Shown in pieces: positions 18,447 to 42,100 of a stretch of DNA of 64,000 nt. Under the pieces are notes generated by a model. That model searched no databases. It saw only the letters and a program-made list of their open reading frames with translations, and had not been told where the DNA came from. Location: contig CAIVSY010000111.1 in the NCBI GenBank assembly GCA_903908715.1, forward strand, positions 58,655 through 122,654. Reading direction: 5' to 3'. Source of the stretch: an uncultured bacterium (lineage in GTDB: Bacteria > Verrucomicrobiota > Kiritimatiellia > CAIKKV01 > CAITUY01). Each line of letters begins with the position of its first letter. Position 1 is the stretch's first letter. Both the position numbers and the translations under genes were made by a program.

Positions 18447-19841
18447 ATGACCGGGAAAACACACTCCAGCCTTGCCCTGACCGCCCGCTCGGCGGAATGG
18501 ATGGCCATTCCCAAGGCCGGCGAACCATCCACCCCGGGCCACGAAGTCGTTCTTCCCGCCGAATCCCCGCACCGGACCCTCATGGACGCCATAGCAGCCG
18601 ATCCGGATTCCATGGGTAAGGCCCTCCGGGAGAAGTGCGGCAGGCTTCCGAAACCCCTCACCACCGGAATTCCGGCATCCCATGTGCTCCTCCGCGTCCT
18701 GGACCTCCCCGAAGGCAGTCCCCAGGATCTTCGCGGCATGGTGGAACTGCAGGTCGACAAGCTCGCGCCATTCCCGGCTGACGAAGCCACCTTCTCCTAC
18801 GAGGTACTGGATACCGCCAACGGGCGCTGCCGCCTGTGGCTGGGCGCTATCCCAACGAAAACCGCGGAATCGCTGGGCTCCTGCCTCAGGGCAGCCGCCA
18901 TGCCGCCCCGGCGGATTGACATCAACCTCCTCGGATGGTGGCAACTCCTGCGCGACGCCGGGAAAACCGGGGATGGTAACGGCTCCCGGGCTTTCCTGAT
19001 CCTCGAAAACGAATCCTGCGACCTGGTTCTTGCCACAGCCGGAATCCCGGTCTCGGTCCGATCCCTCGACGGCCTCGAGGGTCTTTCGTCCGAGGAACTC
19101 GCCGAGGAAATCACCCGGGAATTCCTCTTTACCCTGACGTCTCTCGACCTCGACCGGACAGGGCAGCCGCTTACGGAAATCGCGGTCTGGCATCGCGGCA
19201 AGGCTCCGGATCTCACAATCCAGCGCCTGCACGAGCAAATCGGCGTGGCCGTGCATGCCTTCACCCTGGAGACCCTGCCCCCATTGGCTGAAGGCCTGAG
19301 CCGCAGGGCGATCGCCGGAACACCGCTGCTGGATCTGGCACCCGCCGCATGGCGCGAAGCCGAAGCCAGTCAACGTGCCAGGCGGCGGCTGGTCAGCGTC
19401 GGCGGGACCCTGCTGGGCCTCTGGGCCATCGCCATGGTGATCCTTTTCGGTGGTCTTCAGTATCACAAACAGCGCCTGGGACATCAGGAGACCCTGCTCG
19501 CCGGACTCGCTCCGGCCGCTGAAAACGCCCGTGCCGTGCGCGATCGGGTCAAAACCCTTGAACAGTATATCGAGCGGAAGCACTCGGCCTTGGAATGCCT
19601 GCGCGAAGTTTCCGACCTGCTCCCGCCGGGCATCGAGCTCAAGTCGTTCAACTACCGCAAGTCCAAGACCCTGGAATTGTCCGGCGAGGCTGACGCCGTC
19701 TCTCTCGTCTTCGACTTCAAGAAGGAGATGGAGAAGTCCGAGCTGTTTATCAAGACCGACCTGCCCCGCACCCAGCGGAACGCGCAGGGCAAGGAGGTAT
19801 TCAAGCTGATCGCCACACTGCCGGGAGGAGAGATACAATGA
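18447..19841 (+). CDS. gspL: GspL-like assembly protein (PilM-like cytoplasmic domain, TM segment, PilN-like periplasmic domain)
   Basis: 464 aa. One central TM segment (LLGLWAIAMVILFGGL) separates a cytoplasmic domain from a periplasmic domain. Position matches gspL in the operon order. Confidence 0.55.
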   Translation: MTGKTHSSLALTARSAEWMAIPKAGEPSTPGHEVVLPAESPHRTLMDAIAADPDSMGKALREKCGRLPKPLTTGIPASHVLLRVLDLPEGSPQDLRGMVELQVDKLAPFPADEATFSYEVLDTANGRCRLWLGAIPTKTAESLGSCLRAAAMPPRRIDINLLGWWQLLRDAGKTGDGNGSRAFLILENESCDLVLATAGIPVSVRSLDGLEGLSSEELAEEITREFLFTLTSLDLDRTGQPLTEIAVWHRGKAPDLTIQRLHEQIGVAVHAFTLETLPPLAEGLSRRAIAGTPLLDLAPAAWREAEASQRARRRLVSVGGTLLGLWAIAMVILFGGLQYHKQRLGHQETLLAGLAPAAENARAVRDRVKTLEQYIERKHSALECLREVSDLLPPGIELKSFNYRKSKTLELSGEADAVSLVFDFKKEMEKSELFIKTDLPRTQRNAQGKEVFKLIATLPGGEIQ

Positions 19842-20404
19842 AAATGTCCTCCCGGGAAATTCTTCTGGCCGGCATCACGGGCATGGTTGCCCTGTTCGGG
19901 GTCTCCTACCTCCTGGCTGTTCCGCGGATCAAGGACTGGAGTGTCCTGCGCGATAAGCGCGAGGAAGCGCAACGCCGCATCGACCTGACACAACGACTGA
20001 TCGAGCAGGCCCCCGCTTGGGACGTCAAGCTCAAGGAGCTACGGCGCAGGCTCCCGCAATATGCACCGGAAAAGGACGTCACGGCCGACCTGATGATCCG
20101 GATCGAAAAAATGGCTTCCGCCAGCGGACTGACCCTCGCAAGCCGTGACCTGGAAAAGGAAACGCGCTCCGCCGAAATGTACGAACTGGCTGCCAACTGC
20201 AAGTGGGAAGGCAAGCTGGAGCCCTTGGTCCAATTCCTCTTTGCACTCCAGCAGGAGGATGCTATCCTCGACGTCAGCCAACTTACGGTGGCACCAAACG
20301 AAAAGCGGATCCTGAAAGGAAGTTTCACCGTTTATTGCTCGTATTCCCGGGCCAAAGCCGGCGGATCCACCGATAAAAACGAACCCAAGGGCCAGCAACC
20401 ATGA
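19838..20404 (+). CDS. gspM: GspM/PilO-like inner-membrane protein
   Basis: 188 aa. N-terminal TM segment followed by a periplasmic domain. ATGA overlaps with both gspL and gspD. Confidence 0.5.
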   Translation: MKMSSREILLAGITGMVALFGVSYLLAVPRIKDWSVLRDKREEAQRRIDLTQRLIEQAPAWDVKLKELRRRLPQYAPEKDVTADLMIRIEKMASASGLTLASRDLEKETRSAEMYELAANCKWEGKLEPLVQFLFALQQEDAILDVSQLTVAPNEKRILKGSFTVYCSYSRAKAGGSTDKNEPKGQQP

Positions 20405-22776
20405 AATCCCCGATCCTGCGTACCTTCGGATGCATCGTAGCCATCCTGGCGGCCGGCCTCGGCGCCCCGCTCCCGGCCCAGATGCCGCCTGCAACGGCCA
20501 CTCCATCTGCGCCTCCCACCCCACCGGCGATCCCGGGCCTGACCCGCCCCGCACCAACCGTGAATCCTCAAACCGCCCCTTCAACCACCAAGACCGTCGC
20601 CCTGAAATTCAACGCCGCCCCCATGGAGCAGGTCCTGCAATTCTACAGCGAACTGACAGGCCGCACCATTCTCCCCGCGCCGGGAATCAATGCAACCGTC
20701 ACCCTGCGCAGCCAATCCGACCTGACCATCGCCGAAGCCATCCAGGCCATCAAGACCGTTCTCGCCATGAACAATGTCGGACTGGTCGACACCGGCCCCA
20801 AGTTCGTCAAGGTCGTCCCCATCGGCTCCGTCCAGCAGGAAGGCCTGCCGATACAGAGCAACATCTGGCAGGAAGTCCGCCACGAGGAAAATGACCAGTT
20901 GTTGAGCGAGATCATCCCGCTGAAATACATCGACCCCGCAGAGGCACAGAAAGCGATCAGCGGGCTGATCCATTCCTATGGCAAGATCCTGCCGCTGGAA
21001 CGAATCAACAGCCTGCTGATCGCCGACAGCTCCATCAATATCAACCGTATCAAGGACGTCCTCATCCAGATCGACCAACCCCTGGAACTGAAGGAAAAAC
21101 TGCATATCATGACCATCCGGCATGCGAAGGCGTCGGATATCAAGGCCCGCATGGAGGAAATCCTGGCCGACCAGAAGGAGAAGGAAAAACAAACTTCCGG
21201 CCGCCGCCTTAAGGAAACCGGATCCCCGGGCGTGGAAACCGCTACGCCGCCCACCATTCCAGGCGTCATCCGTGCACGGCCTGCCGCCACCACCCCGACC
21301 TCCACCACCGAACCGGCCGCAGTCGACGAAGGCGAGATGATCCGCGGCACGGTCAAGCTGATTGCCGACGACCGGACCGGTATGCTGATCATCATCACCC
21401 GCCCGGAAAATATGCTTTTCTTTGAACAGATCGTCACGGCCCTCGATGTACCCACCGCGCCGGATGTCAGCGTGCAGGTCATCCGCCTCGAATATGCCGA
21501 CGCCGAAAGCGTCGCGAGCATGCTGAACGCCCTGATCGGAGCGGCCTCATCCACGAAGGACAGCCAACCCGCTAAAGGCGCCACCAGCGGCACCGCCGCC
21601 TCTGCCGGGAAGACAGGAGAGTCCACCGAGCCCGCGCGCAGCAGCCAGCTCCAGGAGTTTATCGAACAGCAGCGCACGCTGGCCACCCGCTCCACCAGGG
21701 CCGGGGAAGCCAAGTCAAAGATCGGCCAGCTCTCGGCCGAAAATATCCGCATCCTGGCCGATGAACGGACAAACGCTCTCATCATCATGGCCAGCAAGGG
21801 TGATATGGCCTCCATCCTCGACCTGCTGAAGGATATGGACATCATGTTGTCCCAGGTGCTGATCGAGGCGGTCATCCTCCAGGTCGCACTGGACAAGACC
21901 CTGGAGCGCGGCGTGGACTGGGTCCAGCGCTCCATGGTGGCCTACGACACGGACAACGGCGGCCGCGATCCGCTCTTCGCCTTCGCGGGCGCAGGGGGCG
22001 GCGGAACCCTTTCGCCCAAGGATGCCTTGAGCCTCTCCTCCACCTTCTCCGCAGGTGGCGGCTTAACTTACTACTTCACACATTTCGGATTGAACATGGA
22101 TGCCGTCATAAAGCTCACCCAGACGGACTCCCGCGGAAAAGTTCTTTCCTCCCCGATCATCCTCACGACCGACAACAAGGAAGCCATCATCAAGATCACG
22201 GAAAACCGATACTTCTACAAGGGCGTGCGCTACGTGGGTTATTCGGGAACGGAGCAGCAACTGGCCCCCGATGTGGAATCCAAGGACATCGGGCTGACCT
22301 TGACCGTCAAACCGCGCATCAACGCGAAGAAGTTCGTCAGCATGGAGATCAAGCAGGAGATCCAGAATATCTCCGGCGAACAGGCAATCGAGGGGCAGGG
22401 CAACTGGCCGATCGTTGCCTCCCGCGAAATGACGGCCGCCATCTCCGTCCGCAGCGGCGAAACCATCGTGCTCGGCGGCCTTGTGGAGAAATCCGAGAAC
22501 AACAGCGGAATCCGCATTCCCCTCCTGGGTAGCATCCCGATCCTGGGCATCCCCTTCCGCTCCACCACCGATAAGGACCTGCGCCGCGAAATCGTCGTGT
22601 TTATCACACCCACTGTCCTGGATAACCCCGAGGAAATCGAGGCCGAATCCGCCCGCCGCAAGAGCGCCACCACAATGAACGGGGAGGGTATGTGGGAAAA
22701 CCGATGGTCGAACAGTAAACTGGCGGAGCCGCCCCGCGGTCGCGTGGGCCAGTGGTGGCGCAACCTCTTGAAATAG
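20401..22776 (+). CDS. gspD: Type II secretion outer-membrane secretin GspD
   Basis: 791 aa. Signal peptide, N0/N1 domains, a Thr/Pro/Ala-rich linker and a C-terminal secretin domain (VLSSPIILTTDNKEAII…IPILGIP). Confidence 0.9.
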   Translation: MKSPILRTFGCIVAILAAGLGAPLPAQMPPATATPSAPPTPPAIPGLTRPAPTVNPQTAPSTTKTVALKFNAAPMEQVLQFYSELTGRTILPAPGINATVTLRSQSDLTIAEAIQAIKTVLAMNNVGLVDTGPKFVKVVPIGSVQQEGLPIQSNIWQEVRHEENDQLLSEIIPLKYIDPAEAQKAISGLIHSYGKILPLERINSLLIADSSININRIKDVLIQIDQPLELKEKLHIMTIRHAKASDIKARMEEILADQKEKEKQTSGRRLKETGSPGVETATPPTIPGVIRARPAATTPTSTTEPAAVDEGEMIRGTVKLIADDRTGMLIIITRPENMLFFEQIVTALDVPTAPDVSVQVIRLEYADAESVASMLNALIGAASSTKDSQPAKGATSGTAASAGKTGESTEPARSSQLQEFIEQQRTLATRSTRAGEAKSKIGQLSAENIRILADERTNALIIMASKGDMASILDLLKDMDIMLSQVLIEAVILQVALDKTLERGVDWVQRSMVAYDTDNGGRDPLFAFAGAGGGGTLSPKDALSLSSTFSAGGGLTYYFTHFGLNMDAVIKLTQTDSRGKVLSSPIILTTDNKEAIIKITENRYFYKGVRYVGYSGTEQQLAPDVESKDIGLTLTVKPRINAKKFVSMEIKQEIQNISGEQAIEGQGNWPIVASREMTAAISVRSGETIVLGGLVEKSENNSGIRIPLLGSIPILGIPFRSTTDKDLRREIVVFITPTVLDNPEEIEAESARRKSATTMNGEGMWENRWSNSKLAEPPRGRVGQWWRNLLK

Positions 22777-22792: not shown

Positions 22793-23446
22793 ATGAAGAA
22801 ATCATTTACCGTTACCGCCGCGTTGGCTCTTGCAATGCTGGCCGGTTCAGGATGCAGTTCGTTGCGCATCGTGCAGGGTCAGGCCGCACCGCCCAACTGG
22901 GTCGCCAACCCCTCCGCCCTGCCGGACGCTGATACCAATGCCTTCGTGTTCGCCAGCGGAATCAGCACCTACAACATGGTTCTCGAGGAGGGCATCAACG
23001 ATGCCCGGCATGATGCCATCCGGAAAATCGCCGAACGCGTCAGCGTAACCGCCGACGACATCTACCGGACAGACCGGAATGACAAGCTTTCGAATACCCA
23101 TACCGATATGCCGAATACCCCTCAGACGTTCTTCAACTCGCACAAGGCGGTCAGCACCGGCAGCAAGGTGGAAACAAAGAAAACCCGCAACCCGCAGGCA
23201 AACCATGTATCCCAGACCCGCCTGCACGGCATGGATGAGTTCAAGCTGTCGTACACGGTCTGGCAATACGGCCCAAGCCTCTGGGCAAAAATGATCTATG
23301 GCGATACCGCCGTCCGCTTCTACGATGTATACGTCCTGATGCGGTGCCCAAAGACAGAATTCACAAGGGCTCTGCGTCTTGAATCGGAGCAGGAAGGCAT
23401 CCTGCCCGCCGGCGAGGTCAGCCCAACCGAAGGGACCCGCCAGTAA
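22793..23446 (+). CDS. Lipoprotein (candidate secretin pilotin/accessory)
   Basis: 217 aa. Lipobox LAGSGC after the signal peptide. Lies 16 nt downstream of gspD. Confidence 0.5.
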   Translation: MKKSFTVTAALALAMLAGSGCSSLRIVQGQAAPPNWVANPSALPDADTNAFVFASGISTYNMVLEEGINDARHDAIRKIAERVSVTADDIYRTDRNDKLSNTHTDMPNTPQTFFNSHKAVSTGSKVETKKTRNPQANHVSQTRLHGMDEFKLSYTVWQYGPSLWAKMIYGDTAVRFYDVYVLMRCPKTEFTRALRLESEQEGILPAGEVSPTEGTRQ

Positions 23447-24404: not shown

Positions 24405-24440
24405 CCCGCGGCGGATGTCAGAATCCGCGGCGGGTTTTTT
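24405..24440. terminator. Bidirectional intrinsic terminator (rpsI versus acyltransferase)
   Basis: CCCGCGGCGGAT-loop-ATCCGCGGCGGG with one mismatch, followed by TTTTTT. Sits between the convergent 3' ends of rpsI and the acyltransferase gene. Confidence 0.6.
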
Positions 24441-25350
24441 ATCGCTCCCTGCCGGAGGGAACCGGATCGAGGACCCATCGCTTGTTGTACCAGAACCACT
24501 GACCGGGATCCTCACGGATTCCCCGCTCCACAACATCCAGCACCGCCTGGGTCATCCGCTGGATATCGGCCTGTTTCTCCATTCCGGGATCCGCCAGCAC
24601 CGGCGCATGCATACGCCCCTCATGACGCGCCCAGCCAGTACGCCGCATCAGGATCGGATACACCGGGACGCCGGTATGCCGCGCAAACATCGCCATCCCG
24701 GGACCGACATTGGCCTCACCGCCCAGAAAACGCACACGAACCCCCTCCTCCCGCATACGGACATCGGGAAGCATCGCCAGGAAACCACCCTGCTCCAGGC
24801 GACGGACAATCTCCCTCAAAGACCCGGCACCCCGCAGAGTGATCGGAATCCCCGCCCGCTCCCGTGCCCGGTTGAGATAACGGTCAAACAGCGGATTGCG
24901 CTGCTTGCCGGCCACGGAAAACACCGGCATGCCGAGAAGTTGCATCGCACGCCCGGCTAATTCCCAGGATCCCATGTGGGGCACGGCGATCACCGCACCC
25001 TGACCCCTCTCCTTCTGCTCCTTCAACGCCGCCAGGAAATCACAATCGGCAATCGCCTGGAACCGTTCCAAGGTCAGGGAAGGCGACCGGATGATATCCA
25101 CCGCCGTGAACATCAGGTTGCGCAAGGACTCCCATGCAATCCGCCGCACCTCACGCTCCTCGTAACGATCCCCGAATACGAGGCGGATCCGTCGTTCCGC
25201 TTCAGCCCTCCGGAACCGCACCAGATGGAAACCGATGAACGCAAGACCCCAAGCCACGGCAAGTGCAATGCGGTAAGGGAGAACACCTACAACCCAAGCC
25301 ATTCCCCGCAGAAACCCATACTCCAGCAAATGCTTGACCCGGTATTTCAT
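24439..25350 (-). CDS. Lipid A biosynthesis lauroyl/myristoyl acyltransferase (LpxL/HtrB lysophospholipid acyltransferase family)
   Basis: 303 aa. N-terminal TM segment and PHMGSWE (H-x4-E, equivalent to HFGNWE in LpxL). ATGA overlap with the upstream DUF362 gene. Confidence 0.75.
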   Translation of the reverse strand: MKYRVKHLLEYGFLRGMAWVVGVLPYRIALAVAWGLAFIGFHLVRFRRAEAERRIRLVFGDRYEEREVRRIAWESLRNLMFTAVDIIRSPSLTLERFQAIADCDFLAALKEQKERGQGAVIAVPHMGSWELAGRAMQLLGMPVFSVAGKQRNPLFDRYLNRARERAGIPITLRGAGSLREIVRRLEQGGFLAMLPDVRMREEGVRVRFLGGEANVGPGMAMFARHTGVPVYPILMRRTGWARHEGRMHAPVLADPGMEKQADIQRMTQAVLDVVERGIREDPGQWFWYNKRWVLDPVPSGRER

Positions 25351-26504
25351 TCAACCCCTCCCCGCCCCTTGCGCCGCGGCCGCAGGGCCTGGATGACGCG
25401 GAACACGGGACCCGGCGCCATTTCAATGGCATGCGCCGGGCAGATTTCATGACAGCAGCAACAGGCAATACAGAGTCCGGAATTGAGTAACGGACTTGAA
25501 CCGGGCTCCATGTGCAAGGCATTGGCCGGACACGCCCGGACACACTTGCCGCAGGAAATACAGGCCGCACCGAAAACCGGGCGATGCCAGAACGCCGGAG
25601 CCACCATCCGGATCAACCAGCCGGGAATCCACGCTGTCGGCACGACCCGCGCCAGACGGAATTCCCGTACCCGCCCGCAATCCGCGCCCCCTTCTACTTC
25701 AATGTCCTCCGCATGGGCATTCCCGTGCCCGAGACGTTCCGCCGCCGCAAGGTGGGCAATCCGAGCCGGCTCCATCCCCAGCATCCAGCAGAAAACAGAA
25801 TCCAGCGCCACCCCGTCCGCCGAAGCTCCCACGATCCCAAGAGGGAAAGGCCGGCCCGCCGATGGCCCATCCCCATCCATCGCCAACACCCCATCCGCAA
25901 TCGCAAGAACCGGCTTCACCCTGCCATAAACCCGGGCCAGCATCTCGCTGAACTCCGACACACGGGGATACTGCTTGTGCAAGGCCGTCTTCTGGAATCC
26001 CGGAACCACGCCATACAGGTTCTTGACCGAAGCTGTGAGTCCCGTAAGCACATGAGTCTTGACCTTTGGCACCGTGATGATGGCGTCCGATTCCAGCACC
26101 GGCCGGGCAATCGTAAAGGAGATCCCTCCATCCTCAAACGTTTCCGATCCCGCCTTCTCCAGGTTCACAAGGGGCACAGACTCCTCCCTGCAAACCGCCG
26201 CCACGCCGGTCCTGTCCCACACCCTTGCCAGATCCGCGACATTGGCCGGGCTATCCCCCACCCAGGGCGAGGCGCCAGCCCCCTTGACGAGACGGATCAC
26301 CGCACGAACCATCTCCGGGTGTGTCGTGACCGCCTCTTCCGGTCGCGCGTCGGTGAGAAGATTGGGCTTGATGAGAACCTGCTGACCGGGGCGTACGAAT
26401 ATACCCATTCCGCCAAGACGGGCCATGAGGCCCTCCACGGATCCGGCAACCGCATCGTAACTGTCGCATCGAGCAAGGATCACCCGCGAGGTCATGCGCA
26501 GCAA
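25347..26504 (-). CDS. DUF362 domain protein with C-terminal 4Fe-4S dicluster ferredoxin domain
   Basis: 385 aa. C-terminal CxxCxxCxxxCP twice (CISCGKCVRACP, CIACCCCHEICP). Confidence 0.6.
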   Translation of the reverse strand: MLRMTSRVILARCDSYDAVAGSVEGLMARLGGMGIFVRPGQQVLIKPNLLTDARPEEAVTTHPEMVRAVIRLVKGAGASPWVGDSPANVADLARVWDRTGVAAVCREESVPLVNLEKAGSETFEDGGISFTIARPVLESDAIITVPKVKTHVLTGLTASVKNLYGVVPGFQKTALHKQYPRVSEFSEMLARVYGRVKPVLAIADGVLAMDGDGPSAGRPFPLGIVGASADGVALDSVFCWMLGMEPARIAHLAAAERLGHGNAHAEDIEVEGGADCGRVREFRLARVVPTAWIPGWLIRMVAPAFWHRPVFGAACISCGKCVRACPANALHMEPGSSPLLNSGLCIACCCCHEICPAHAIEMAPGPVFRVIQALRPRRKGRGGVE

Positions 26505-26543
26505 GGTACCGCCCCCTCCCCACCCTCCACAAGAGCAAAACCA

Positions 26544-27107
26544 TCACCAGTAGATGAAACTGGCCAGCAGGTCCCGGTCGGCTTCCGGCAGTTCCGAAAG
26601 ATCGGGTATGATGTAGCGGTTGTCAAAGGCATCCAGCAGGACCTTGCCCGATGACCCATAGTCTTCCGCGCGATCCCCGCGCCAAGGCATGACAAAGTCG
26701 AGTTTGCCACGGGTCGTTTCGACCTTGAAGAACAACAAGCCAAACCGGTTCTCGATCTTGTGGATGCGGATGATCCTCCGCTCGAAATAATGCTTGGCCA
26801 TGCTCTTGCGAACCATGTCCTGAGCCTCTTGCGAAAAAACCTTCAGGTCGTCAATAATCCCGATCTCCCGCTCCTTCTCATTCCGGTCATTGGTGTCCGT
26901 GTACCGCAGGGATATGAACCGGTCCGGCTGGCTGACGGGAAAGAGGACCACGGCATAGACCCCGCGGTACAACGTGTCGCCCTGGACCGCGCAATGCATG
27001 AGGGAGAATGAACCCTCGAAAAGGTTGGTGTTCTCCGGCGTCAACAGCCGGACCCCGACTTGTCCCAGCCGGGCGTCATCATAAACCTGGACTCCGGGCG
27101 CCTGCAT
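26544..27107 (-). CDS. Small cytoplasmic protein (DUF1854-like, an ABC-transporter-associated family, tentative)
   Basis: 187 aa, no TM segment. Its start lies 1 nt after the ABC exporter stop, suggesting translational coupling. Confidence 0.45.
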   Translation of the reverse strand: MQAPGVQVYDDARLGQVGVRLLTPENTNLFEGSFSLMHCAVQGDTLYRGVYAVVLFPVSQPDRFISLRYTDTNDRNEKEREIGIIDDLKVFSQEAQDMVRKSMAKHYFERRIIRIHKIENRFGLLFFKVETTRGKLDFVMPWRGDRAEDYGSSGKVLLDAFDNRYIIPDLSELPEADRDLLASFIYW

Positions 27108-27108
27108 C

Positions 27109-29412
27109 CTATTGAACCTCCAGCCGTGTCAGCTCCGTCTGAATCTTGACCAGTTTATAGTACACTCCCTGCTTCTCCAGGAGCTGCTCATGGGTGCCGG
27201 CCTCAATCACACGACCTTCGTCGATGACAAAAATGTGGTCGGCATTCTTGAGTGTCGAGAGCCTGTGTGCAATGGCAATCGTTGTCCGGCCCCTGCACAG
27301 GGTTGTCAGGGCCTTCTGGATTTCCTGTTCCGACTCGGTATCCACCGAGGAGGTCGCCTCGTCGAGGATGAGGATCTTGGGATCGCACAGCAGGGCACGG
27401 GCAATGCTGATGCGCTGTCGTTCACCGCCGGAGAGGCCCGCCCCTTGCTCACCGAGCTTGGTGTCATATGCCAGCGGTCGGCGCGCAATGAAATCATGAG
27501 CGTTGGCGGCGCGTGCGGCGTTCAGGATGGCCAGTGGGGACGCATCGGGCCGGCCGTAGGCGATGTTCTCGGCAATGCTGGCGCGGAAAAGGAACGGTTC
27601 CTGCAGGACCAGGGCCATCTGGCGGCGCAGGTCCTGTTGCTTCATCTCTCGCACATCCACGCCATCCACAAGAATTTTCCCCTCCAGGGGGTCGTAGAAC
27701 CGGCACAACAGGTTCACCAGCGTTGTCTTGCCAGACCCGCTCTTTCCCACGATCCCGATAAACTGTCCGGGCTCGATGGTCAGCGAAACGTTCTTCAGAA
27801 CCGGCGCGTAGGGATCGTACCCGAACGTCACATTCCGGAACTCGATCCGCCCTTCCATATGGCTCACCGGGCGCGCATCCTTGGTCTCGACCACCACCAC
27901 CGTGGCATCCAGCACCTCAAATACCCGCTGCCCGGCCGAGAGAAAACCCGTCACCCAGTTGGAGAACATGCTCAAGGCCGAAATCGGCCCGTAGAACATC
28001 CCCATATACCCGAAGAAGGCCATCAGGGTACCCAGGGTGATCTTGTCCTGCAGCACCTCGCGCCCGCCCGCATACCAGATGATCAAGCCGCCTAACCCGA
28101 ATACAAAACCCATGATCGGGTTGAATGTCGCCACGCTGGTCTCGAGGGAACGACGGCTTTCCTGAAGATACCCCGCCGTTGCGCCGAAACGACGCCGCTC
28201 ACGGTCCTCCTGGCTGAAGGCCTTCACTAAACGGATACCCGACAGCAGGCCCGATAGCAATTGCGCCGTCTTGGACTGACTGTCCCAGACCTTGTAGTAG
28301 CGGGGATAGATATGACGCCAGAAGAACGTGGTACCAACCACCACGAAGGGAATGGGCAGCAATACCAGCAATGCCAGCTTCCAGTTCATGAAGAACAACA
28401 TGCTGCCGATACCCAGAACCAGCATCATGTTGAGCATGAACCCTTGCGCCACCTGCGTCACAAATCCCTGGAAATAGTCGACGTCCCACAACACCCGGCT
28501 CATCAGACTTCCCACGGAATGACGGTTGTAATACTCCACCGCCAGGCTCATGAGTTTCGCCTGCAGCTTTTCCCTCAACTCCTTTGTGATCCGGGTCCCG
28601 ATCACACTGGTGGTCCGCCCGATGAAGATGTTCAGCAGGCAGCGTCCGCCCGATGCCACCACCAGGCCCAACAGGATCATCAGCAGGATGCGAACACTCT
28701 CCGCTCCCGAAAGAGGCTCCGCGCCCGGCTCCGGCTTGAGGACCCTGTCCACCATCGTCTTCTGCAGGAATGGCGGCAGCAGATCCAGGCATACCCCGGC
28801 GATCATCACCAGGAACAACAGGAGAATACTCGGCCAATAGGGCCGCATGAGCCCCAGGGTGCGGGCGAAGATTCCACGCCCGCCGCGGCATCGCGGACAC
28901 TGCGCCTTGCGGCCAGGCAAAGGCAGGCCGCATTGCTCACACCGCATATCACTCTGAGCCGACAACGCGGATTCCGGCAAAGGCTGCCCCTCAATCCGCC
29001 TCTGGATGTGGCGGGCCACCCGCCCGAACAACTCGCGCTCGGCATTACTGAATCGCGCCACATCCACGTACAGGCCATCCATCTTGACCTGCAGGAAGGC
29101 GCTGCCGACCTTCTGGTACGACCGGACTTTCTGGATATCCTTCAGGAGGAAAGGCCCTACAGGCGACTCCCGGGGCTCACCGGCCTTGAGCGCCGCAATC
29201 CGGTCCTCCGCCACCAGAGTCCACACCTCGGCTGGTTCACCTGCCAGATCCAGATCGCTGCGAACGGCAAACAAGAGTGCCTGGTCCGAAAACCCGAGGG
29301 AAAAAGCCTGCTCCCGTACCCCATCGGGAATCCGGCGGAAACAAAGCACGGCAGGGATCCCCTGCTCTTTACTTGTCATGATTGTCATCCCCTCCCTGCC
29401 TCTCCATGCCAC
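27109..29412 (-). CDS. ABC exporter, fused permease and ATPase (MsbA-like), with a roughly 170-aa N-terminal cytoplasmic extension
   Basis: 767 aa. Six-TM exporter domain, Walker A GKSGSGKTT, signature LSGGERQRISIARALL and Walker B ILILDEATS. The N-terminal extension carries CEQCG…CPRCRG (a zinc-ribbon-like four-Cys motif). Confidence 0.85.
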   Translation of the reverse strand: MAWRGREGMTIMTSKEQGIPAVLCFRRIPDGVREQAFSLGFSDQALLFAVRSDLDLAGEPAEVWTLVAEDRIAALKAGEPRESPVGPFLLKDIQKVRSYQKVGSAFLQVKMDGLYVDVARFSNAERELFGRVARHIQRRIEGQPLPESALSAQSDMRCEQCGLPLPGRKAQCPRCRGGRGIFARTLGLMRPYWPSILLLFLVMIAGVCLDLLPPFLQKTMVDRVLKPEPGAEPLSGAESVRILLMILLGLVVASGGRCLLNIFIGRTTSVIGTRITKELREKLQAKLMSLAVEYYNRHSVGSLMSRVLWDVDYFQGFVTQVAQGFMLNMMLVLGIGSMLFFMNWKLALLVLLPIPFVVVGTTFFWRHIYPRYYKVWDSQSKTAQLLSGLLSGIRLVKAFSQEDRERRRFGATAGYLQESRRSLETSVATFNPIMGFVFGLGGLIIWYAGGREVLQDKITLGTLMAFFGYMGMFYGPISALSMFSNWVTGFLSAGQRVFEVLDATVVVVETKDARPVSHMEGRIEFRNVTFGYDPYAPVLKNVSLTIEPGQFIGIVGKSGSGKTTLVNLLCRFYDPLEGKILVDGVDVREMKQQDLRRQMALVLQEPFLFRASIAENIAYGRPDASPLAILNAARAANAHDFIARRPLAYDTKLGEQGAGLSGGERQRISIARALLCDPKILILDEATSSVDTESEQEIQKALTTLCRGRTTIAIAHRLSTLKNADHIFVIDEGRVIEAGTHEQLLEKQGVYYKLVKIQTELTRLEVQ

Positions 29413-29464
29413 GAACTGCAGGAGGAACGGCCGGAGGTTACAACGGATTACACAGGACCCGGGT

Positions 29465-30421
29465 TCACTTCGCCGACTTGAGCATCACCCGGACGTCTTC
29501 CAACTTGCCGGCGCTGCCGAGCTTGACGTTCTTTTCCGCGATGAACTTGGCGTATTCCTTCATGAACACCTTGCCCGGGGGGCGCAGGTCGAAATTCTTC
29601 GGATCGTCACGGAATGACTCGCGATGCACGCGGCACCACACCAGCCGGCCGTCGGTATCGATGTTGATTTTGGTAACGCCCAGCGTCGCCGCGCGCTTGA
29701 ATTCGTCGGCATTAACACCCTTGGCGCCCTTGAGTTGGCCGCCGGCAGCGTTGATGCGGGCCACTTCGTCCTGCGGAACACTGCTGGAACCGTGCATGAC
29801 CAGTGGGAATCCGGGCAACCGCTTCTGGATCGCCGCCAGAACATCAAAGTGCAAGCCCTGCGAACCCGAGAACTTGAAGGCTCCATGGCTCGTGCCAATT
29901 GCACAGGCCAGGCTGTCGCACCCGCTCTTCTTGACAAACTCCTCCGCCTGCGCCGGATCGGTCAGCTTGGCATCGGCTTCCGCCACGGAAACGTGCTCCT
30001 CCACGCCGCCCAGCTTGCCCAACTCGGCCTCCACGCTGATCCCGCGCGCATGCGCCGCATCCACGACCCGCTTGGTAATCTCAATGTTCTTTTCAAACGG
30101 CTCGGCGCTGGCATCAATCATCACAGAACTGTAGAACCCGCTCTTGATGCAATCCATGCAGGTTTCCTCGTCACCATGATCCAGATGCACCGCGAAAATC
30201 GCATCCGGGAAGATCTCGTCGGCCGTCCGGATCATGGCCTCGAGCATCTTCTTGTTCGTGTAGGAGCGGGCTCCCTTGGACAACTGGATGATGAACGGGG
30301 CCTTGCTGTCGATATTCCCCTGGAACAGACCCATCGTCTGCTCCAGGTTGTTGATGTTATAGGCGCCAATCGCATACTTGCCATACGCATGGCTGAACAA
30401 CTGCTTCGTCGCGACAATCAT
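29465..30421 (-). CDS. fba: Fructose-bisphosphate aldolase, class II
   Basis: Start trimmed to ATG 30421 (AGGAGA ribosome-binding site). 319 aa. Class II FBA motifs (HLDHG, GTSHG, zinc ligands). Confidence 0.85.
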   Translation of the reverse strand: MIVATKQLFSHAYGKYAIGAYNINNLEQTMGLFQGNIDSKAPFIIQLSKGARSYTNKKMLEAMIRTADEIFPDAIFAVHLDHGDEETCMDCIKSGFYSSVMIDASAEPFEKNIEITKRVVDAAHARGISVEAELGKLGGVEEHVSVAEADAKLTDPAQAEEFVKKSGCDSLACAIGTSHGAFKFSGSQGLHFDVLAAIQKRLPGFPLVMHGSSSVPQDEVARINAAGGQLKGAKGVNADEFKRAATLGVTKINIDTDGRLVWCRVHRESFRDDPKNFDLRPPGKVFMKEYAKFIAEKNVKLGSAGKLEDVRVMLKSAK

Positions 30422-32620: not shown

Positions 32621-32796
32621 GATTCTCCTCTGGAATAGGTTCACATAACAAGTGCCGTCATCGAACCACACACACGTCCGGTAATCCAGAAAAAACCTGC
32701 TTTCCGCAACGCCTGCGCTCCTTGCCGACTGTCTTCGCACTTGCGCCAAGATCCAGCCGGGTGTACATACAAAGGCACAACCAACGAGGTGTTCCA

Positions 32797-34644
32797 ATGG
32801 CATCACGAATTACCCCCACCGGCCACACGGACGGCGAACGGCAGGAGATCGCCGGCTCCACCAAGCCCCTGCTGTTCGAAATCGCCTGGGAAGTCTGCCA
32901 GCAGCTGGGCGGCATCTACACCGTGATCCGGTCCAAGGTACCCAGCATTGTCGAGCACTGGGGCAGCCGCTATTGCCTTGTGGGCCCGTATAACCCGCAG
33001 ACGTCCCCGACCGAATTCGAGGAAGCGCAGCCGACCGGGATCCTGCGCGACACGATGAATATCCTGCGCGAACAGGGCATTGAGGCCCATTACGGCCACT
33101 GGCTGATCACCGGACGCCCGCGCGTGATCCTCCTGAACCCGGAATCCGTCCGGCCCGCCATGGGCTGGGTGAAATACCTGCTCTGGGAGCATCACGACAT
33201 CAGTCTCCCTGCGGACGATGCACTGATCAACCAGGTTGTATCCTTCGGGCACTGCGTGGAACACCTGTTCCGCGCAGTGGCGCGGGTGCAAACGGCCCGC
33301 CGCCCGATCATCGCCCACTTCCACGAGTGGATGGGGGCCTCCGCCATTCCGGAAGTCCGCCGCGCGGAAATTCCCGTTTCCATCGTCTTCACCACTCATG
33401 CCACCCTTCTCGGCCGTTATCTGGCCATGAATGACCCGTGGTTCTACGACCATGTGCCGTTCGTGGACTGGCTGGCAGACGCGCGGCGCTTCAACATCGA
33501 GGCGCAGGTTCGCATCGAACGGGCTGCCGCCCATGGATGTCATATCTTCACCACGGTGAGTGAGATCACAGGCTACGAATGCGAGCACCTGCTGGGACGG
33601 AAACCGGATGTCCTGCTGCCGAACGGCTTGAATATCGAGCGGTTCGTCGCCCTGCACGAGTTCCAGAACCTCCACCGGGTCTACAAGGAGAAGATCAACG
33701 AGTTCGTGATGGCCCACTTCTTCCCCAGCTACTCGTTCGATCTGGACCGGACTCTCTATTTCTTCACCTCGGGCCGCTTTGAATACCGCAACAAGGGGTT
33801 CGACCTGACCCTCGAGGCGCTGGCACGCCTGAACTGGCGCATGAAACAGTCGGGCACCAACAAAACAGTCGTGTTCTTCATCATCACCCGCCAACCAATC
33901 CGCTCCATCAACGCCGAAGCCCTCCGCCGCCGTGCCATGATGCAGGAAATGCAGCACGACTGCCGCGCCATCGCCGACCAGATCGGCGAGCGCCTGTTCG
34001 TCGCCACATCCACCGGAAAGTTCCCGGCCATGGAGGAACTCGTCGACGACTACTGGCGCCTGCGGCTCCGCCGCCTGATGCACGTCTGGCGTTCCTCCAG
34101 CATGCCCACGGTCGTCACGCATGACCTGATGGATGACAGCCGCGACGAAATCCTGAACCAGATCCGCTCCTGTTCCCTCATCAACCTGCCCGGCGACCCC
34201 GTGAAGGTGGTCTACCACCCGGATTTCGTCACCACGAACGACCCCCTGTTCGGTATGGACTATGACCAGTTCGTGCGCGGATGCCATCTGGGAATATTCC
34301 CCAGCTCCTACGAGCCATGGGGGTACGCTCCTCTGGAATGCGCCGCCCTCGGCCTGCCGTCCATCACCAGCAACCTGGCCGGCTTCGGCAATTACGTGGA
34401 GCACAACATTCCCGACAATGTCCGGAACGGGATGCTGGTGCTGAACCGGCGCTTCAGCGCGTTCGACGAATCGGCCAACGCGCTGACCCAGATGATGTTC
34501 GACTTCCTGCAGATGGACCGCAGGGAGCGAATTGCCCAGCGGAACCGCGTGCAGAACGTGTCCGAACAGTTCGATTGGCACCAGTTGGGAAGCCATTACG
34601 CCGAGGCGTACACTCAGGTGCTCACGCGCAGCGGACAGGACTGA
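32797..34644 (+). CDS. Glycogen synthase, eukaryotic-type (GT3 family)
   Basis: N-terminal LLFEIAWEVCQQLGGIYTVIRSKVP…LVGPYNP. This aligns with the hallmark N-terminus of animal/fungal glycogen synthases (LFEVAWEV…GGIYTV). 615 aa. Confidence 0.8.
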   Translation: MASRITPTGHTDGERQEIAGSTKPLLFEIAWEVCQQLGGIYTVIRSKVPSIVEHWGSRYCLVGPYNPQTSPTEFEEAQPTGILRDTMNILREQGIEAHYGHWLITGRPRVILLNPESVRPAMGWVKYLLWEHHDISLPADDALINQVVSFGHCVEHLFRAVARVQTARRPIIAHFHEWMGASAIPEVRRAEIPVSIVFTTHATLLGRYLAMNDPWFYDHVPFVDWLADARRFNIEAQVRIERAAAHGCHIFTTVSEITGYECEHLLGRKPDVLLPNGLNIERFVALHEFQNLHRVYKEKINEFVMAHFFPSYSFDLDRTLYFFTSGRFEYRNKGFDLTLEALARLNWRMKQSGTNKTVVFFIITRQPIRSINAEALRRRAMMQEMQHDCRAIADQIGERLFVATSTGKFPAMEELVDDYWRLRLRRLMHVWRSSSMPTVVTHDLMDDSRDEILNQIRSCSLINLPGDPVKVVYHPDFVTTNDPLFGMDYDQFVRGCHLGIFPSSYEPWGYAPLECAALGLPSITSNLAGFGNYVEHNIPDNVRNGMLVLNRRFSAFDESANALTQMMFDFLQMDRRERIAQRNRVQNVSEQFDWHQLGSHYAEAYTQVLTRSGQD

Positions 34645-37713: not shown

Positions 37714-39024
37714 TCAGCCTTCAACAACTTGCATGGCAATCCCGGCCCATTCCGTCAGACGAGCCGGATCATATCGTACCGTGCTGATATCCTTGAGAAT
37801 GATCTCCAGAGGACACCCGTGCCTTTGACAGATCGTGCGCGTTGCCAGAAGATCGGCTCTCACCTGGTCCCCATGGAACTGGTCCGTAGCGAGAAAGGCA
37901 GGACTGGGCTTGCGGGAGTACACGAATTCGTCGCGCATTTCCGCTGCCCCGCGCTCCTGATCGACCCACGGGCTCATGGAAACCTTGCGGACGTTCGGAA
38001 TCTTACGCACCTGCGCCATCTTCATGTCCAAGGGTTCACAGCAGCCGTAATAGACCAACCCGAAGCGCCTGGCGATCCGGCTGACATATGTTACCTCGAA
38101 TTCATCGAACATGTCGGGTGAAACCGTACCCAGCATCTGCGCCATGGAGAACATCCAAAGGTCCTTGACCCTCGGGGAATCCGGATTATAGCCGGGCGCC
38201 GGCAGGTCATCCGTATAAGCCCCCGTGCAATGCACTTCATCCTGCGGACCGCAAAGCAATCCCTGCGCCTCCAACTGGTCCAGTTGGCTCAAATATCCAT
38301 CCGTCACACGGGAAAGCAGCTCATGCATCAGTTCCGGGTTGTCTACCATCATGTAAAGGGCATTCTCAACCCCCATCCACATGGAGACGGGGTCCCAGAT
38401 GGTCTTGTAGGACGGATCCGCCCCGGACGCGCGCACTTCCAGCAAGCCATCGAAAAGCTCATGCGCGACCGCCATCTTCTGCTCCGTTTCAGCGGCCTCA
38501 TGCCAGATGCGGGGCATCTTGATCTTCTCAAGATCCTCCATGGTGTTGAACTGGTTCTCGTACTTGTGCCCAACGACGCTGTTTGAGGGATCGCCCACCG
38601 CAATCTCCTCCTGGATCGAAACGCCAAAACCCGTATTGTGGATAACCTTGTGCACGTCAATATAAGACTCCACGACCTTATCCACCGGGAAATGCCGCCA
38701 CTGGTAGAGGGTCTTCCGCAGAATGTCCTCGTAGTAGCGGCAGAAGGAATCCGTGCAACGCAAGGTCAACTCATCGTTGACGTTGATCTCGTTCCAGCAC
38801 ACCTGATCGATCATGACCATCGGACGGACCGGCTTGCGTGCGTTGAGCTTACGCCACATGGCGCGCTTCTCTGCCTGGACAGGCAACGCTGCAATTTCCG
38901 CAACACGGGCCGCCAAGTCGCGTATGATCTTCTTGTCCTGCGCACATATCTTCATGGTGTCCAAACTCTCTCCCATTGCCTGACCCAAGAGGGCACGGTC
39001 TGCCATCGACATGAACCGACGCAA
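37714..39024 (-). CDS. Hypothetical protein (URO-D/MtaA-like fold suspected)
   Basis: 436 aa, natural composition, no TM segment. Weak resemblance to uroporphyrinogen-decarboxylase-family (MtaA/CmuA-type) proteins. Confidence 0.4.
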   Translation of the reverse strand: MRRFMSMADRALLGQAMGESLDTMKICAQDKKIIRDLAARVAEIAALPVQAEKRAMWRKLNARKPVRPMVMIDQVCWNEINVNDELTLRCTDSFCRYYEDILRKTLYQWRHFPVDKVVESYIDVHKVIHNTGFGVSIQEEIAVGDPSNSVVGHKYENQFNTMEDLEKIKMPRIWHEAAETEQKMAVAHELFDGLLEVRASGADPSYKTIWDPVSMWMGVENALYMMVDNPELMHELLSRVTDGYLSQLDQLEAQGLLCGPQDEVHCTGAYTDDLPAPGYNPDSPRVKDLWMFSMAQMLGTVSPDMFDEFEVTYVSRIARRFGLVYYGCCEPLDMKMAQVRKIPNVRKVSMSPWVDQERGAAEMRDEFVYSRKPSPAFLATDQFHGDQVRADLLATRTICQRHGCPLEIILKDISTVRYDPARLTEWAGIAMQVVEG

Positions 39025-39126
39025 AAACTATGGGGTATCACGTCAGGAGTCAACTTCCATCACAACGGCTGCGGAACAACTGCTTTGGGCTTTCCTCTCA
39101 GAGCCGAATGTTCCTATAATGGCCGG

Positions 39127-42100
39127 GTGAAAGCATTGCGTACCCTTGTCATGCTCTTGCTGGCAACCGCCCTCTATTCGGTCCGGCATACCCTGCAAGG
39201 GGATCACACACCCTTATCCCCTACCGCCGGTCCGCATGCCAGTCCCTTGCACGCAGACGCCAGAGGAATCCCAAACGCCCCTCTCCCACCCCCGCAAAAC
39301 GTAACGGGTACAATACCGGCGGCCATGAGCCCTGGTCCAGACCCCACCTCGCAACTTCCGACAGTTGCATCCCGCTTCACACCCATCTCCCCCGCCGGCC
39401 AGTTGACCCGAGTGGTGCGCCTGGTGCGCACGAATACCAAGTACGCCTTCTGGCGTATCGAGGAAATCCGCGGAACGGCATCCGGCCCTACCCCGCCTTC
39501 CACCCGCTCCCGTATGATTGCTGTGGCCGACCACGTGATTGTCCGCACCAAGCCGGGCCTACCGCGGAACACCCTCGCGGCTGTTTGTGCCCGCCACGGC
39601 GCCACCATACGGAAGTCCCTTCACCTGCCTGATCACTACCTTGTTGCCGTTCCAGAGGCCGATCTGGATACACTCCCCAATCTCATGGCCCGCCTGAACA
39701 GCGAAACCTCTTCCATCCTCTACGCCGAACCTGACCATATTGTTTTTGCCACCCAGACCTTTCCCAATGATCCCTCCTTCACCAACCTCTGGGGACTGCA
39801 TAACACAGGACAATCCGGAGGCAAGACAGATGCCGATATCGACGCTCCGGAAGCCTGGGATATCTCCCAGGGGAGCCCGGAAATGATTGTTGGCGTGATC
39901 GATTCCGGCGTGGATCTCTCCCATCCGGACTTGGCCTCGAACATCTGGACTAATCCCATGGAAACGGCGAACGGGCTGGATGATGACGGCAATGGCTATG
40001 TCGACGACCTCAACGGATGGGATTTCCTGACGGAGGACAATTCCCCCAGCGACGCCAATTCACACGGGACTCACTGTGCCGGCACCATTGCGGCCATCGG
40101 CAACAACGACCTTGGGGTCGCCGGGCTGACCTGGCGATGCAAGATCATGCCCCTGCGTTTCCTGGATGCGAGTGGAAGCGGGACCACTTCCGACGCCATG
40201 GAAGCCATTCTCTATGCAACCGACCTGCGGCGCCGCGGCATCCCTATCCGCCTCACCAGCAACAGCTGGGGTGGCGGCGGAGATCTGTCACTTTCCGAAG
40301 CCATCCGTGCCAGTGGCGAAGCGGGCATGCTGTTTGTTGCAGCCGCCGGAAACTCCGGATCCAACAACGACCTTCAGCCTTTCTATCCAGCCAGTTATTC
40401 CTGGGACAATATCATCTCGGTGGCGGCAACAGACCGCCTGGATGAACGCGCAAGCTTTTCCTGTTATGGCGCAAACTCCGTGGATCTGGCTGCGCCCGGC
40501 TCCGACATCTACAGCACGGTACCCGGCGGCTACGGATCGAAGAGCGGCACCTCGATGGCCACCCCGCATGTGGCCGCCCTCGCCGCCCTCCTGTGGAGCG
40601 AACGACCCGAAGCCAGTCCTGCCGAAATCCGCACCCTTCTCTTCTCTACCGTGGATCCGCTGCCCTCGCTCGCCGGGAAAATGGTCACAGGCGGAAGAAT
40701 CAACGCCCGGAAGGCACTCGAGAAGCTTTTCCGGATCACGCATTCCCCCGCCGGAAACCGCATCAATACTGGATCCCCTTACGTCATAACGGCCAGCATA
40801 GCCCCGCCAGCCCTGGCGGATACCAATCAGGTGTGGCTGTACTGGAATCAGGATGAATCCACCAATTTCCTGGCAGTCCCGATGGAGCCGGTCCAGTCAA
40901 ACCTGTTCCAGGCATCCATCCCCACCCAACCGGAAGGGTCCACCATCAGCTACTGGCTGAAGGCTGTATCCCTCTCCGGCTTGACTGCGACGCACCCGTC
41001 CAACGCACCCGGCGCCATTCACCGCTTCACCCTGATGCCATCCGTGACCCTGGAGGTCACCGGAACACCGGGAACCAACGGCCCGGCAAGCCCCGATTAC
41101 GGGCTACACATCCTCCCGTCAAACATGGAAGTAACGGCCACCGCCGTATGGCATACCACCCCACTGCAAGGAGCAAGATGGGCCTGCCTCGGCTGGACCG
41201 GTACAGGCGATACGCCCGAGAGCGGTTCCTCCAATTCCCTGGTCTTCACCCTGGATCATCCCTCAACCCTCGAATGGCGCTGGACCAGGGAATTCGGACT
41301 GGATCAGACCACCCTGGTGGCAGGCGTCCAGGAAACCACAACCTGGTGGCAGGCCGACTCCACAGCCACAACCCTCACCGCACCGGAAAGCCTTGCACGC
41401 CAGGGAACCAACTTCATGTTCGTCTACTGGAATCTGGATGGAGCCCGTCAACCCTCCCCCGAAGAACCAGCCGTGAACCCCATTGCCGGTATCCCAATGG
41501 GAGCGCCACGCAAAGCCTCAGCCCTATATGTATCCGCCGACCTTGACGCCGATGCCGACACCATGCCGGACTGGTGGGAACTGCGGTTCTTCGGCACAAC
41601 CAATGCCGCTCCGGAAAGCGATGACGATGGCGATGGGTTCTCCAACCTGGATGAGTACCGGGATCACACCTCGCCCCGCAGCACCAATGACGCCCCCGTT
41701 CTGCCCCTGATTCTTCATACGCCCTTGGAAGACCCGATGCCCCGCCCTGCCCCGTACACGTTGGAAGCCTATGTGGCCGATAATTTCGATGTGGCCGACG
41801 TTATGCTGTTCTGGATCCGTTCCGGCAATCCTGTGCAATCCATTCCAATGACAGAAGCCCCGGATATCAACCAATATTCAGCCATAATTCCCGCGCCGGG
41901 CACGAACGGAGATGTCCTTGTGTACTGGATCACTGCCAGTGATCCGCTGGGCCAGACCGCCACCAACGGCCCTCACACCGTGCATGTTTCCTATCCCTTG
42001 CTGCAAGTCACCCCTCACGCCTTTTCTCCTGTTGTCGAGCCCCAGACAACCACCAATCAACCCCTCTCCATCAAAAATCTCGGGAATGCCGTACTGGATA

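Follow-up and report, generated by a model that had tools for sequence, protein, structure and literature searches.

Does an exporter gene that stands close to a gene for a late lipid A acyltransferase belong to a lipid export operon, or are the two merely neighbours? This question is raised by four minus-strand genes in a 64,000-nt stretch (hereafter, the window) of contig CAIVSY010000111.1 from an uncultured bacterium of the class Kiritimatiellia. In the order of transcription, they encode an ATP-binding cassette (ABC) half-transporter with a long N-terminal extension, a DUF1854 protein, a DUF362 iron-sulfur protein, and an acyltransferase of the LpxL/HtrB type. The original prediction, made from the letters of the window, had joined the four genes into a dedicated lipid or glycolipid modification-and-export module. 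Our comparative analysis leads to another reading, which we consider the probable one: the region contains two separate conserved two-gene modules, exporter-DUF1854 and DUF362-LpxL, that stand in tandem in this lineage.

The gene-order survey, in which a DUF1854 alignment was scanned against one genome per species, yielded 40 loci, 31 of them with at least 2.5 kb of downstream sequence. DUF362 and LpxL genes were found downstream of the exporter-DUF1854 pair in only three of these 31 loci (L005, L006, and L007), all of which have the order fba-exporter-DUF1854-DUF362-LpxL, where fba encodes a class II fructose-bisphosphate aldolase; identity to the window proteins falls as low as 78% (exporter) and 57% (LpxL). 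The exporter of a further locus, L008, is 80% identical to that of the window and thus as similar as those of L006 and L007, yet DUF362 and LpxL genes are missing, and the pair is followed by genes for oxidoreductases and a deacetylase. The order fba-exporter-DUF1854 is also present in L012, L013, and L014. No DUF362 or LpxL gene occurs in the approximately 10 kb downstream of the pair in either L012, where the following genes encode a beta-CASP RNase, Ddl, and FtsQ, or L014, where a Ser/Thr kinase gene follows; L013 offers merely 486 nt of downstream sequence. Altogether, fba precedes the exporter pair in seven loci, and clustering of all flanking ORFs (open reading frames) revealed no recurrent neighbour besides fba in these seven related loci. 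The neighbourhoods of the exporter pair are highly variable among loci, and the exporter itself is 56–90% identical across the sampled phyla. Ser/Thr kinase genes on the same strand follow DUF1854 in L001 (10920-12740, 606 aa) and L014 (8901-12695, 1264 aa).

Homologs of the DUF362 protein with 51–67% identity are encoded directly upstream of an LpxL-type gene, without an exporter or DUF1854 gene, in five of the six contexts examined, three of which have fba upstream of the exporter-free pair. One relative has the order fba-DUF362-LpxL-rpsI-rplM-216aa-secretin, which is the neighbourhood of the window minus the exporter pair. Since each pair also occurs by itself beside fba, the exporter-DUF1854 and DUF362-LpxL pairs are modularly independent. 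We considered an insertion of the exporter pair between fba and DUF362 but do not commit to a direction, insertion or loss, because fba-exporter-DUF1854 without downstream DUF362-LpxL exists as well (L012 and L014). The proposal of a single lipid module had been tied beforehand to conservation of the four-gene order. Because this order is kept in so few loci and each pair is found without the other, the proposal is not supported, and neither, as far as the compared genomes indicate, is a lineage-specific functional link among the four genes.

The layout of the window agrees with this division. All four ORFs were recovered on the minus strand at the expected coordinates, and each domain in the four proteins scores above its own Pfam gathering threshold, which confirms the gene and domain assignments of the original prediction. 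Read from the furthest GTG (29412), the exporter ORF covers positions 27109-29412 and encodes 767 aa. The public gene call, an identical protein (P0001), starts at ATG 29388 (27109-29388, 759 aa), and an alternative ATG at 29379 (756 aa) gives the best fit to both the Shine-Dalgarno spacing and the N-terminus of a 90%-identical homolog; the start is most likely one of these two ATG codons. The DUF1854 gene (26544-27107, minus strand, 187 aa) begins 1 nt after the exporter stop codon (TAG-g-ATG), and a GGAGG Shine-Dalgarno sequence (27117-27121, minus strand) can be read within the 3' end of the exporter gene, 9 nt upstream of this ATG. The DUF362 gene (25347-26504, minus strand) and the LpxL gene (24439-25350, minus strand, 303 aa) overlap by 4 nt (ATGA). 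Between DUF1854 and DUF362, however, the distance is 39 nt when the furthest TTG is taken as the DUF362 start, 48 nt with the first ATG, and 117 nt with the public call. The chaining by 1-nt and 4-nt junctions that had been proposed for the whole set therefore holds within the exporter/DUF1854 and DUF362/LpxL pairs but not at the boundary between them, and the junctions describe two tight pairs rather than a single chain. Long antisense ORFs of 327–406 aa lie opposite the exporter and DUF362 genes (27112-28095, 28261-29481, and 25512-26654, all plus strand), and related loci have comparable ORFs opposite their copies of these genes. We rejected them as genes; shadow ORFs of this kind are an expected by-product of GC-rich coding DNA.

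The core of the exporter consists of a type IV (ABCB-like) transmembrane domain (ABC_membrane, PF00664, 118 bits; 27985-28824, minus strand, residues 197-476 of the 767-aa ORF) and a nucleotide-binding domain (NBD; ABC_tran, PF00005, 126 bits, E 2.5e-36; 27349-27798, minus strand, residues 539-688). It had been described as MsbA-like, which is adequate insofar as the protein is a generic ABCB-type half-transporter. It is, however, predicted not to be MsbA, because it scores below the equivalog cut-offs of both MsbA models (455.5 vs 602 bits for TIGR02203 and 368 vs 867 bits for NF008381). Compared with structures in the PDB, the core is generically ABCB-like: the chains of ABCB1, BSEP, TmrAB, TM287/288, and Sav1866 score at least as high as the MsbA chains. 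The best of 189 NCBIfam families for this protein is NF052233, the "cyanophycin metabolism-associated ABC transporter" (579.5 bits). Positions 30-746 of the 766 positions of this model align to exporter residues 43-761, extension included; judging by this alignment, a known family already takes in the N-terminal extension. The architecture of the family is present in the window in all its parts, namely an N-terminal extension, a domain of six transmembrane segments (TM), an NBD, and a DUF1854 gene immediately downstream. The exporter pair is an added member of a known, biochemically uncharacterised exporter family. An anti-phage defence role was also considered and rejected: PADLOC matched the exporter as a generic ATPase only and returned no match for the other three proteins.

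The N-terminal extension of approximately 170 aa, with its CEQCG...CPRCRG motif before TM1, had been noticed from the sequence, together with the possibility that it is an artefact of ORF calling. Its conservation shows that it is a genuine part of the protein and no such artefact. Homologs of 740–800 aa from Verrucomicrobiota, Lentisphaerae, Kiritimatiellia, Planctomycetota, and Armatimonadota cover 94–99% of the exporter query, extension included. In the 759-aa form, the motif forms a putative zinc ribbon, CEQCGLPLPGRKAQCPRC (residues 150-167; 28888-28941, minus strand), of the pattern CxxC-x12-CxxC, approximately 10 residues before TM1. This pattern is kept in 119 of 120 close homologs, the lone exception being a truncated fragment. 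Of 149 distant representatives, 116 have it, and none of the 21 full-length ones lacks it. The hydrophobic segments of the exporter begin at residue 178 of the 759-aa form; from this position and the membrane topology established for type IV ABC exporters, we predict that the extension lies in the cytoplasm. A search of 1.84 billion representatives with a profile built from the extension matched 633 of them with an E-value of 1e-3 or better, and 226 of these reach 1e-10; the 633 are cluster representatives at 50% identity. The match is always N-terminal, and a Walker A motif is present in 21 of 21 full-length matches.

Upstream of the zinc ribbon, residues 15-132 (759-aa form; 28993-29346, minus strand) are predicted to adopt a pleckstrin homology (PH)-like fold, in line with an earlier guess. 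The AlphaFold2 model (mean predicted local distance difference test score, pLDDT, 88.2; predicted template modelling score, pTM, 0.77) has a short strand and a helix, followed by a seven-strand sandwich closed by a long C-terminal helix and then by the zinc ribbon; the predicted strands (E) and helix (H) are E38-46, E52-60, E63-68, E77-81, E87-93, E96-103, E106-114, and H115-132. Nearly all of the top 50 Foldseek matches in the PDB are PH, PTB, or FERM-F3 domains (probability 0.9–1.0), including GRK2, p190RhoGEF, TAPP1, and the bacterial PH protein 3b77. Because the E-values of these matches are weak (2e-3 to 4e-2, with TM-scores of 0.3–0.6), the modelled extension is called PH-like at the fold level only, which is no demonstration of homology. 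When the extension by itself was searched against Pfam with a permissive limit of E 10, no domain family was matched apart from marginal zinc-ribbon hits, and sequence and profile searches of the PDB with the extension found no credible relative. Invariant in 35 aligned extensions are W56, R89, G95, N115, R118, E119, R123, and all four cysteines.

The small partner had been assigned to DUF1854 tentatively, and the assignment is now firm: residues 47-184 match positions 1-130 of the 130-position PF08909 profile with 86.9 bits (threshold 26.8). The only NCBIfam match of this protein is NF052234, the "cyanophycin metabolism-associated DUF1854 family protein" (48.3 bits), and sequence and profile searches of the PDB revealed no credible relative. 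Its AlphaFold2 model (pLDDT 87.6) has two beta-rich halves with a helix at the end of each. A tblastn search found an exporter directly upstream of DUF1854 in all 34 loci with room for one. In six of 21 full-length relatives, DUF1854 is fused behind the NBD at the exporter C-terminus, as shown for P0401 by precomputed Pfam annotation. Together with the 1-nt junction, these observations bear out the proposed coupling of the two genes. They indicate that DUF1854 is an obligatory, sometimes fused, exporter partner, and the fusions are good indirect evidence that it is a cytoplasmic subunit of the exporter. All 120 DUF1854 homologs end in [YF][IV]YW-COOH (YIYW in the window, 26544-26558, minus strand), and four of the six fusions also terminate in the YW motif; this invariant C-terminus suggests a docking motif.

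The DUF362 protein, whose homologs are mostly 376–384 aa long, matches PF04015 with 191.5 bits (threshold 24). Its C-terminal part is a ferredoxin domain of the 2x[4Fe-4S] kind, in which Fer4 matches residues 314-330 (32.2 bits) and dicluster models match residues 313-362. In Pfam, PF04015 belongs to clan CL0471 together with the N-terminal domain of LarA (PMC11770544). The acyltransferase matches PF03279 with 145.9 bits (threshold 22.3) and contains the H-x4-E motif (HMGSWE). Neither protein reaches an NCBIfam equivalog cut-off, the best score of the acyltransferase being 115.6 vs 248 bits. Adjacent DUF362-LpxL pairs were observed in the window (24439-26504, minus strand) as well as in L045 (5001-7099), L046 (5001-7087), L050 (4001-5985), and L051 (4001-6041), at 51–67% identity, often with a 4-nt overlap, and in otherwise differing neighbourhoods. 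A description of this conserved pair was not found in the literature searched, where the results for DUF362 were mostly prefix false positives from DUF3623 and DUF3627. DUF362-LpxL is a conserved pair in its own right and probably serves envelope lipid acylation. Genes of the URO-D family (PF01208) were seen near either module. In a Lentisphaerae metagenome-assembled genome (MAG), such a gene comes after DUF1854; in a Kiritimatiellae MAG, it is close to DUF362; and in a further contig, it stands between fba and DUF362 (L003 11176-12186, L046 2018-3277, and L050 2827-3828).

How might the two modules work? In the first, a homodimeric ABCB-type half-transporter would carry, in each protomer, the cytoplasmic PH-like domain and zinc ribbon ahead of TM1, and DUF1854, coupled to it in translation, would be its partner in the cytoplasm. 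Under the NBDs, on the cytoplasmic side, DUF1854 and the PH-like/zinc-ribbon domain may form an assembly for cargo recognition or gating. Through it, a cargo made in the cytoplasm, probably a peptide- or polyamide-like molecule and not a lipid, would enter the ATP-driven, alternating-access exporter. Three things are inferred here: that these parts form a physical complex, what the accessory domains do, and what kind of cargo is moved. In the second module, the DUF362/Fe-S protein would be translationally coupled to the LpxL-type late acyltransferase. By analogy, a peptide- or polyamide-like cargo of the exporter is more likely than lipid A, an argument that draws on distant relatives. Fitness data from two beta-proteobacteria, Acidovorax and Cupriavidus, link DUF1854 and its neighbouring ABC transporter to cphA/cphA' by co-fitness (bioRxiv 10.1101/072470); Price et al. 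proposed the pair as an amino-acid polymer efflux system and noted fusions of both (bioRxiv 10.1101/072470).

Several observations weigh against the two-module reading or the cargo assigned to it. The exporter, at 579.5 bits, falls short of the NF052233 equivalog cut-off of 880 bits, as does the DUF1854 protein, at 48.3 bits, of the NF052234 cut-off of 150 bits. No CphA-like protein was found among the large ORFs of the window scanned with Pfam, and a crude regular expression for the Mur-ligase P-loop, applied to ORFs of 550 aa or more in the window and in 38 related loci, matched none of them. Clustering of the flanking ORFs likewise gave no cphA-like neighbour beside any of the 38 loci. With no cphA nearby, the idea of a polymer cargo is therefore transferred from distant relatives. 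Homology between the extension and DUF1854 was also considered and rejected, since hhalign gave a probability of 0.1% for the two alignments (A1 vs A2). Finally, the four genes run in one direction at short distances and may well be co-transcribed in this genome, and hence perhaps functionally coupled to some degree; the DUF1854/DUF362 boundary has only a weak terminator-like hairpin, and four genomes share the four-gene order, with LpxL identities as low as 57%. These last points are the ground for the explanation by a single operon, in which LpxL, with the Fe-S protein DUF362 as helper, would acylate a glycolipid or a molecule resembling lipid A, and an MsbA-like exporter with DUF1854 would then flip or export this product. 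The genes share a strand and follow each other at 1 nt, 39–48 nt, and a 4-nt overlap with no convincing terminator between DUF1854 and DUF362, the five-gene order with fba recurs in L005, L006, and L007 at identities down to 78% (exporter) and 57% (LpxL), and the MsbA models do score 455 and 368 bits. We nevertheless regard this explanation as very unlikely: the linkage is kept in only three of 31 loci and is missing from L008 despite its 80%-identical exporter, five of six sampled relatives have DUF362-LpxL without the exporter (one of them in otherwise identical synteny), the MsbA cut-offs of 602 and 867 bits are missed while ABCB, TmrAB, and Sav1866 chains score at least as high as MsbA chains, the nearest specific family is tied by fitness data to an amino-acid polymer rather than to a lipid, and MsbA has no PH-like domain, zinc ribbon, or DUF1854 partner. 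Equally improbable, in our estimate, is a mixed scenario in which a widespread exporter class selects macromolecular cargo through a PH-like/zinc-ribbon receptor and a YIYW-COOH adaptor and, in this lineage, was recruited into a DUF362-LpxL operon, so that an acylated envelope molecule would be made and exported together.

Two further explanations concern the exporter pair itself. It could be a functional ortholog of the cphA-associated system of beta-proteobacteria and export a cyanophycin-like polyamide whose synthetase is encoded elsewhere in the genome. NF052233 and NF052234 are indeed the best and the only specific families for the two proteins, respectively, the NF052233 alignment spans the architecture including the extension, and the pair is co-fit with cphA/cphA' in Acidovorax and Cupriavidus (bioRxiv 10.1101/072470). 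Strict orthology is, however, unlikely given that both scores are well under the equivalog cut-offs, that the window and the 38 loci contain neither a Mur-ligase P-loop ORF of at least 550 aa nor a synthetase-like gene that recurs as a neighbour, and that the neighbourhoods are highly variable. Alternatively, the PH-like/zinc-ribbon domain and DUF1854 could be regulatory, sensing a cytoplasmic signal and gating a general-purpose ABCB-type efflux pump. The generic core, with its similar scores against multidrug, peptide, and lipid exporters, is consistent with such a pump, as is the orphan status of the pair, which lacks a conserved biosynthetic neighbour in 31 of 34 loci. The Ser/Thr kinase genes directly downstream of DUF1854 in two unrelated loci point the same way; this adjacency may be a hint of regulation or may be due to chance in the kinase-rich genomes of the PVC (Planctomycetes-Verrucomicrobia-Chlamydiae) group. 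No ligand-binding motif was identified, however; the accessory elements, three in number, are strictly co-inherited and the pair is very highly conserved (exporter 56–90%), which suggests a specific housekeeping cargo and not general efflux, and the cphA co-fitness in relatives points to a defined substrate. A purely regulatory role appears rather unlikely, and two independent modules, one of them an exporter with a putative cytoplasmic cargo-recognition or gating assembly, remain the reading we prefer.

Outside both modules, fba (29465-30421, minus strand; PF01116, from the public gene table) serves as the upstream syntenic anchor. On the other side, a block on the plus strand (18447-22776) encodes a 791-aa secretin with the GspD-type N0, Secretin_N, and Secretin domains, preceded by PilN/PilM-like genes, and is followed by an ORF for a lipoprotein-like protein of 217 aa (22793-23446, plus strand). 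The block adjoins rplM-rpsI and is syntenic with the relative that has fba-DUF362-LpxL-rpsI-rplM-216aa-secretin. Two other genes of the window deserve mention. One (32722-34644, plus strand) encodes a 640-aa protein that matches PF05693, a glycogen synthase family of the eukaryotic type, along almost its whole length (E 1e-205), an unusual match in bacteria. The other (38638-44184, plus strand) encodes a 1848-aa protein with one subtilase S8 domain (residues 416-672) and no Pfam match elsewhere.

Members of the exporter/DUF1854 family are numerous and occur in many phyla, and what is available for the family consists of curated names and one fitness-based hint. To this, the present analysis adds that the extension comprises a predicted PH-like domain and a putative zinc ribbon, that DUF1854 appears to be an obligatory partner with an invariant C-terminal aromatic motif, and that the exporter-DUF1854 pair travels as a self-contained unit. 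The PH-like domain, the zinc ribbon, and the DUF1854 motif offer handles for structural or genetic study. For annotation, the lesson is that the exporter gene should not be named msbA and that its adjacency to lpxL in this genome should not be read as a lipid-export operon.

Among known systems, MsbA shares with the window exporter the homodimeric half-transporter organization, a transmembrane domain joined to an NBD in the type IV/ABCB fold, and in this lineage two genes separate the window exporter gene from that of a late lipid A acyltransferase; the extension of approximately 170 aa and the obligatory DUF1854 partner, however, belong to the window exporter and not to MsbA. The NF052233/NF052234 pair agrees with the window in its whole architecture, including the N-terminal extension, the DUF1854 gene behind the exporter, and the existence of fusions. 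It differs in that the window proteins score below the family cut-offs and have no cphA/cphA' nearby, that the hosts here are PVC-group bacteria, Armatimonadota, and Planctomycetota rather than beta-proteobacteria, and that the neighbourhoods here are unrelated to nitrogen-polymer metabolism. Extra N-terminal domains are familiar from other exporters: PCAT exporters carry a C39 peptidase domain and HlyB a C39-like domain. The window exporter differs in that its extension shows no sequence or profile similarity to C39 domains or bPH families (no Pfam match) and carries a zinc ribbon, and in having DUF1854 as partner. By analogy, the window exporter may nevertheless be compared with PCAT and HlyB as an ABCB-type exporter with an additional cytoplasmic domain before TM1. 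A comparable analogy may be drawn with DdHIJ, the ABC exporter of the leaderless bacteriocin enterocin DD14, for which the PH-domain helper proteins DdE and DdF are described (PMC8657885); there, proteins of the PH fold assist an ABC exporter, as the PH-like domain may do here.

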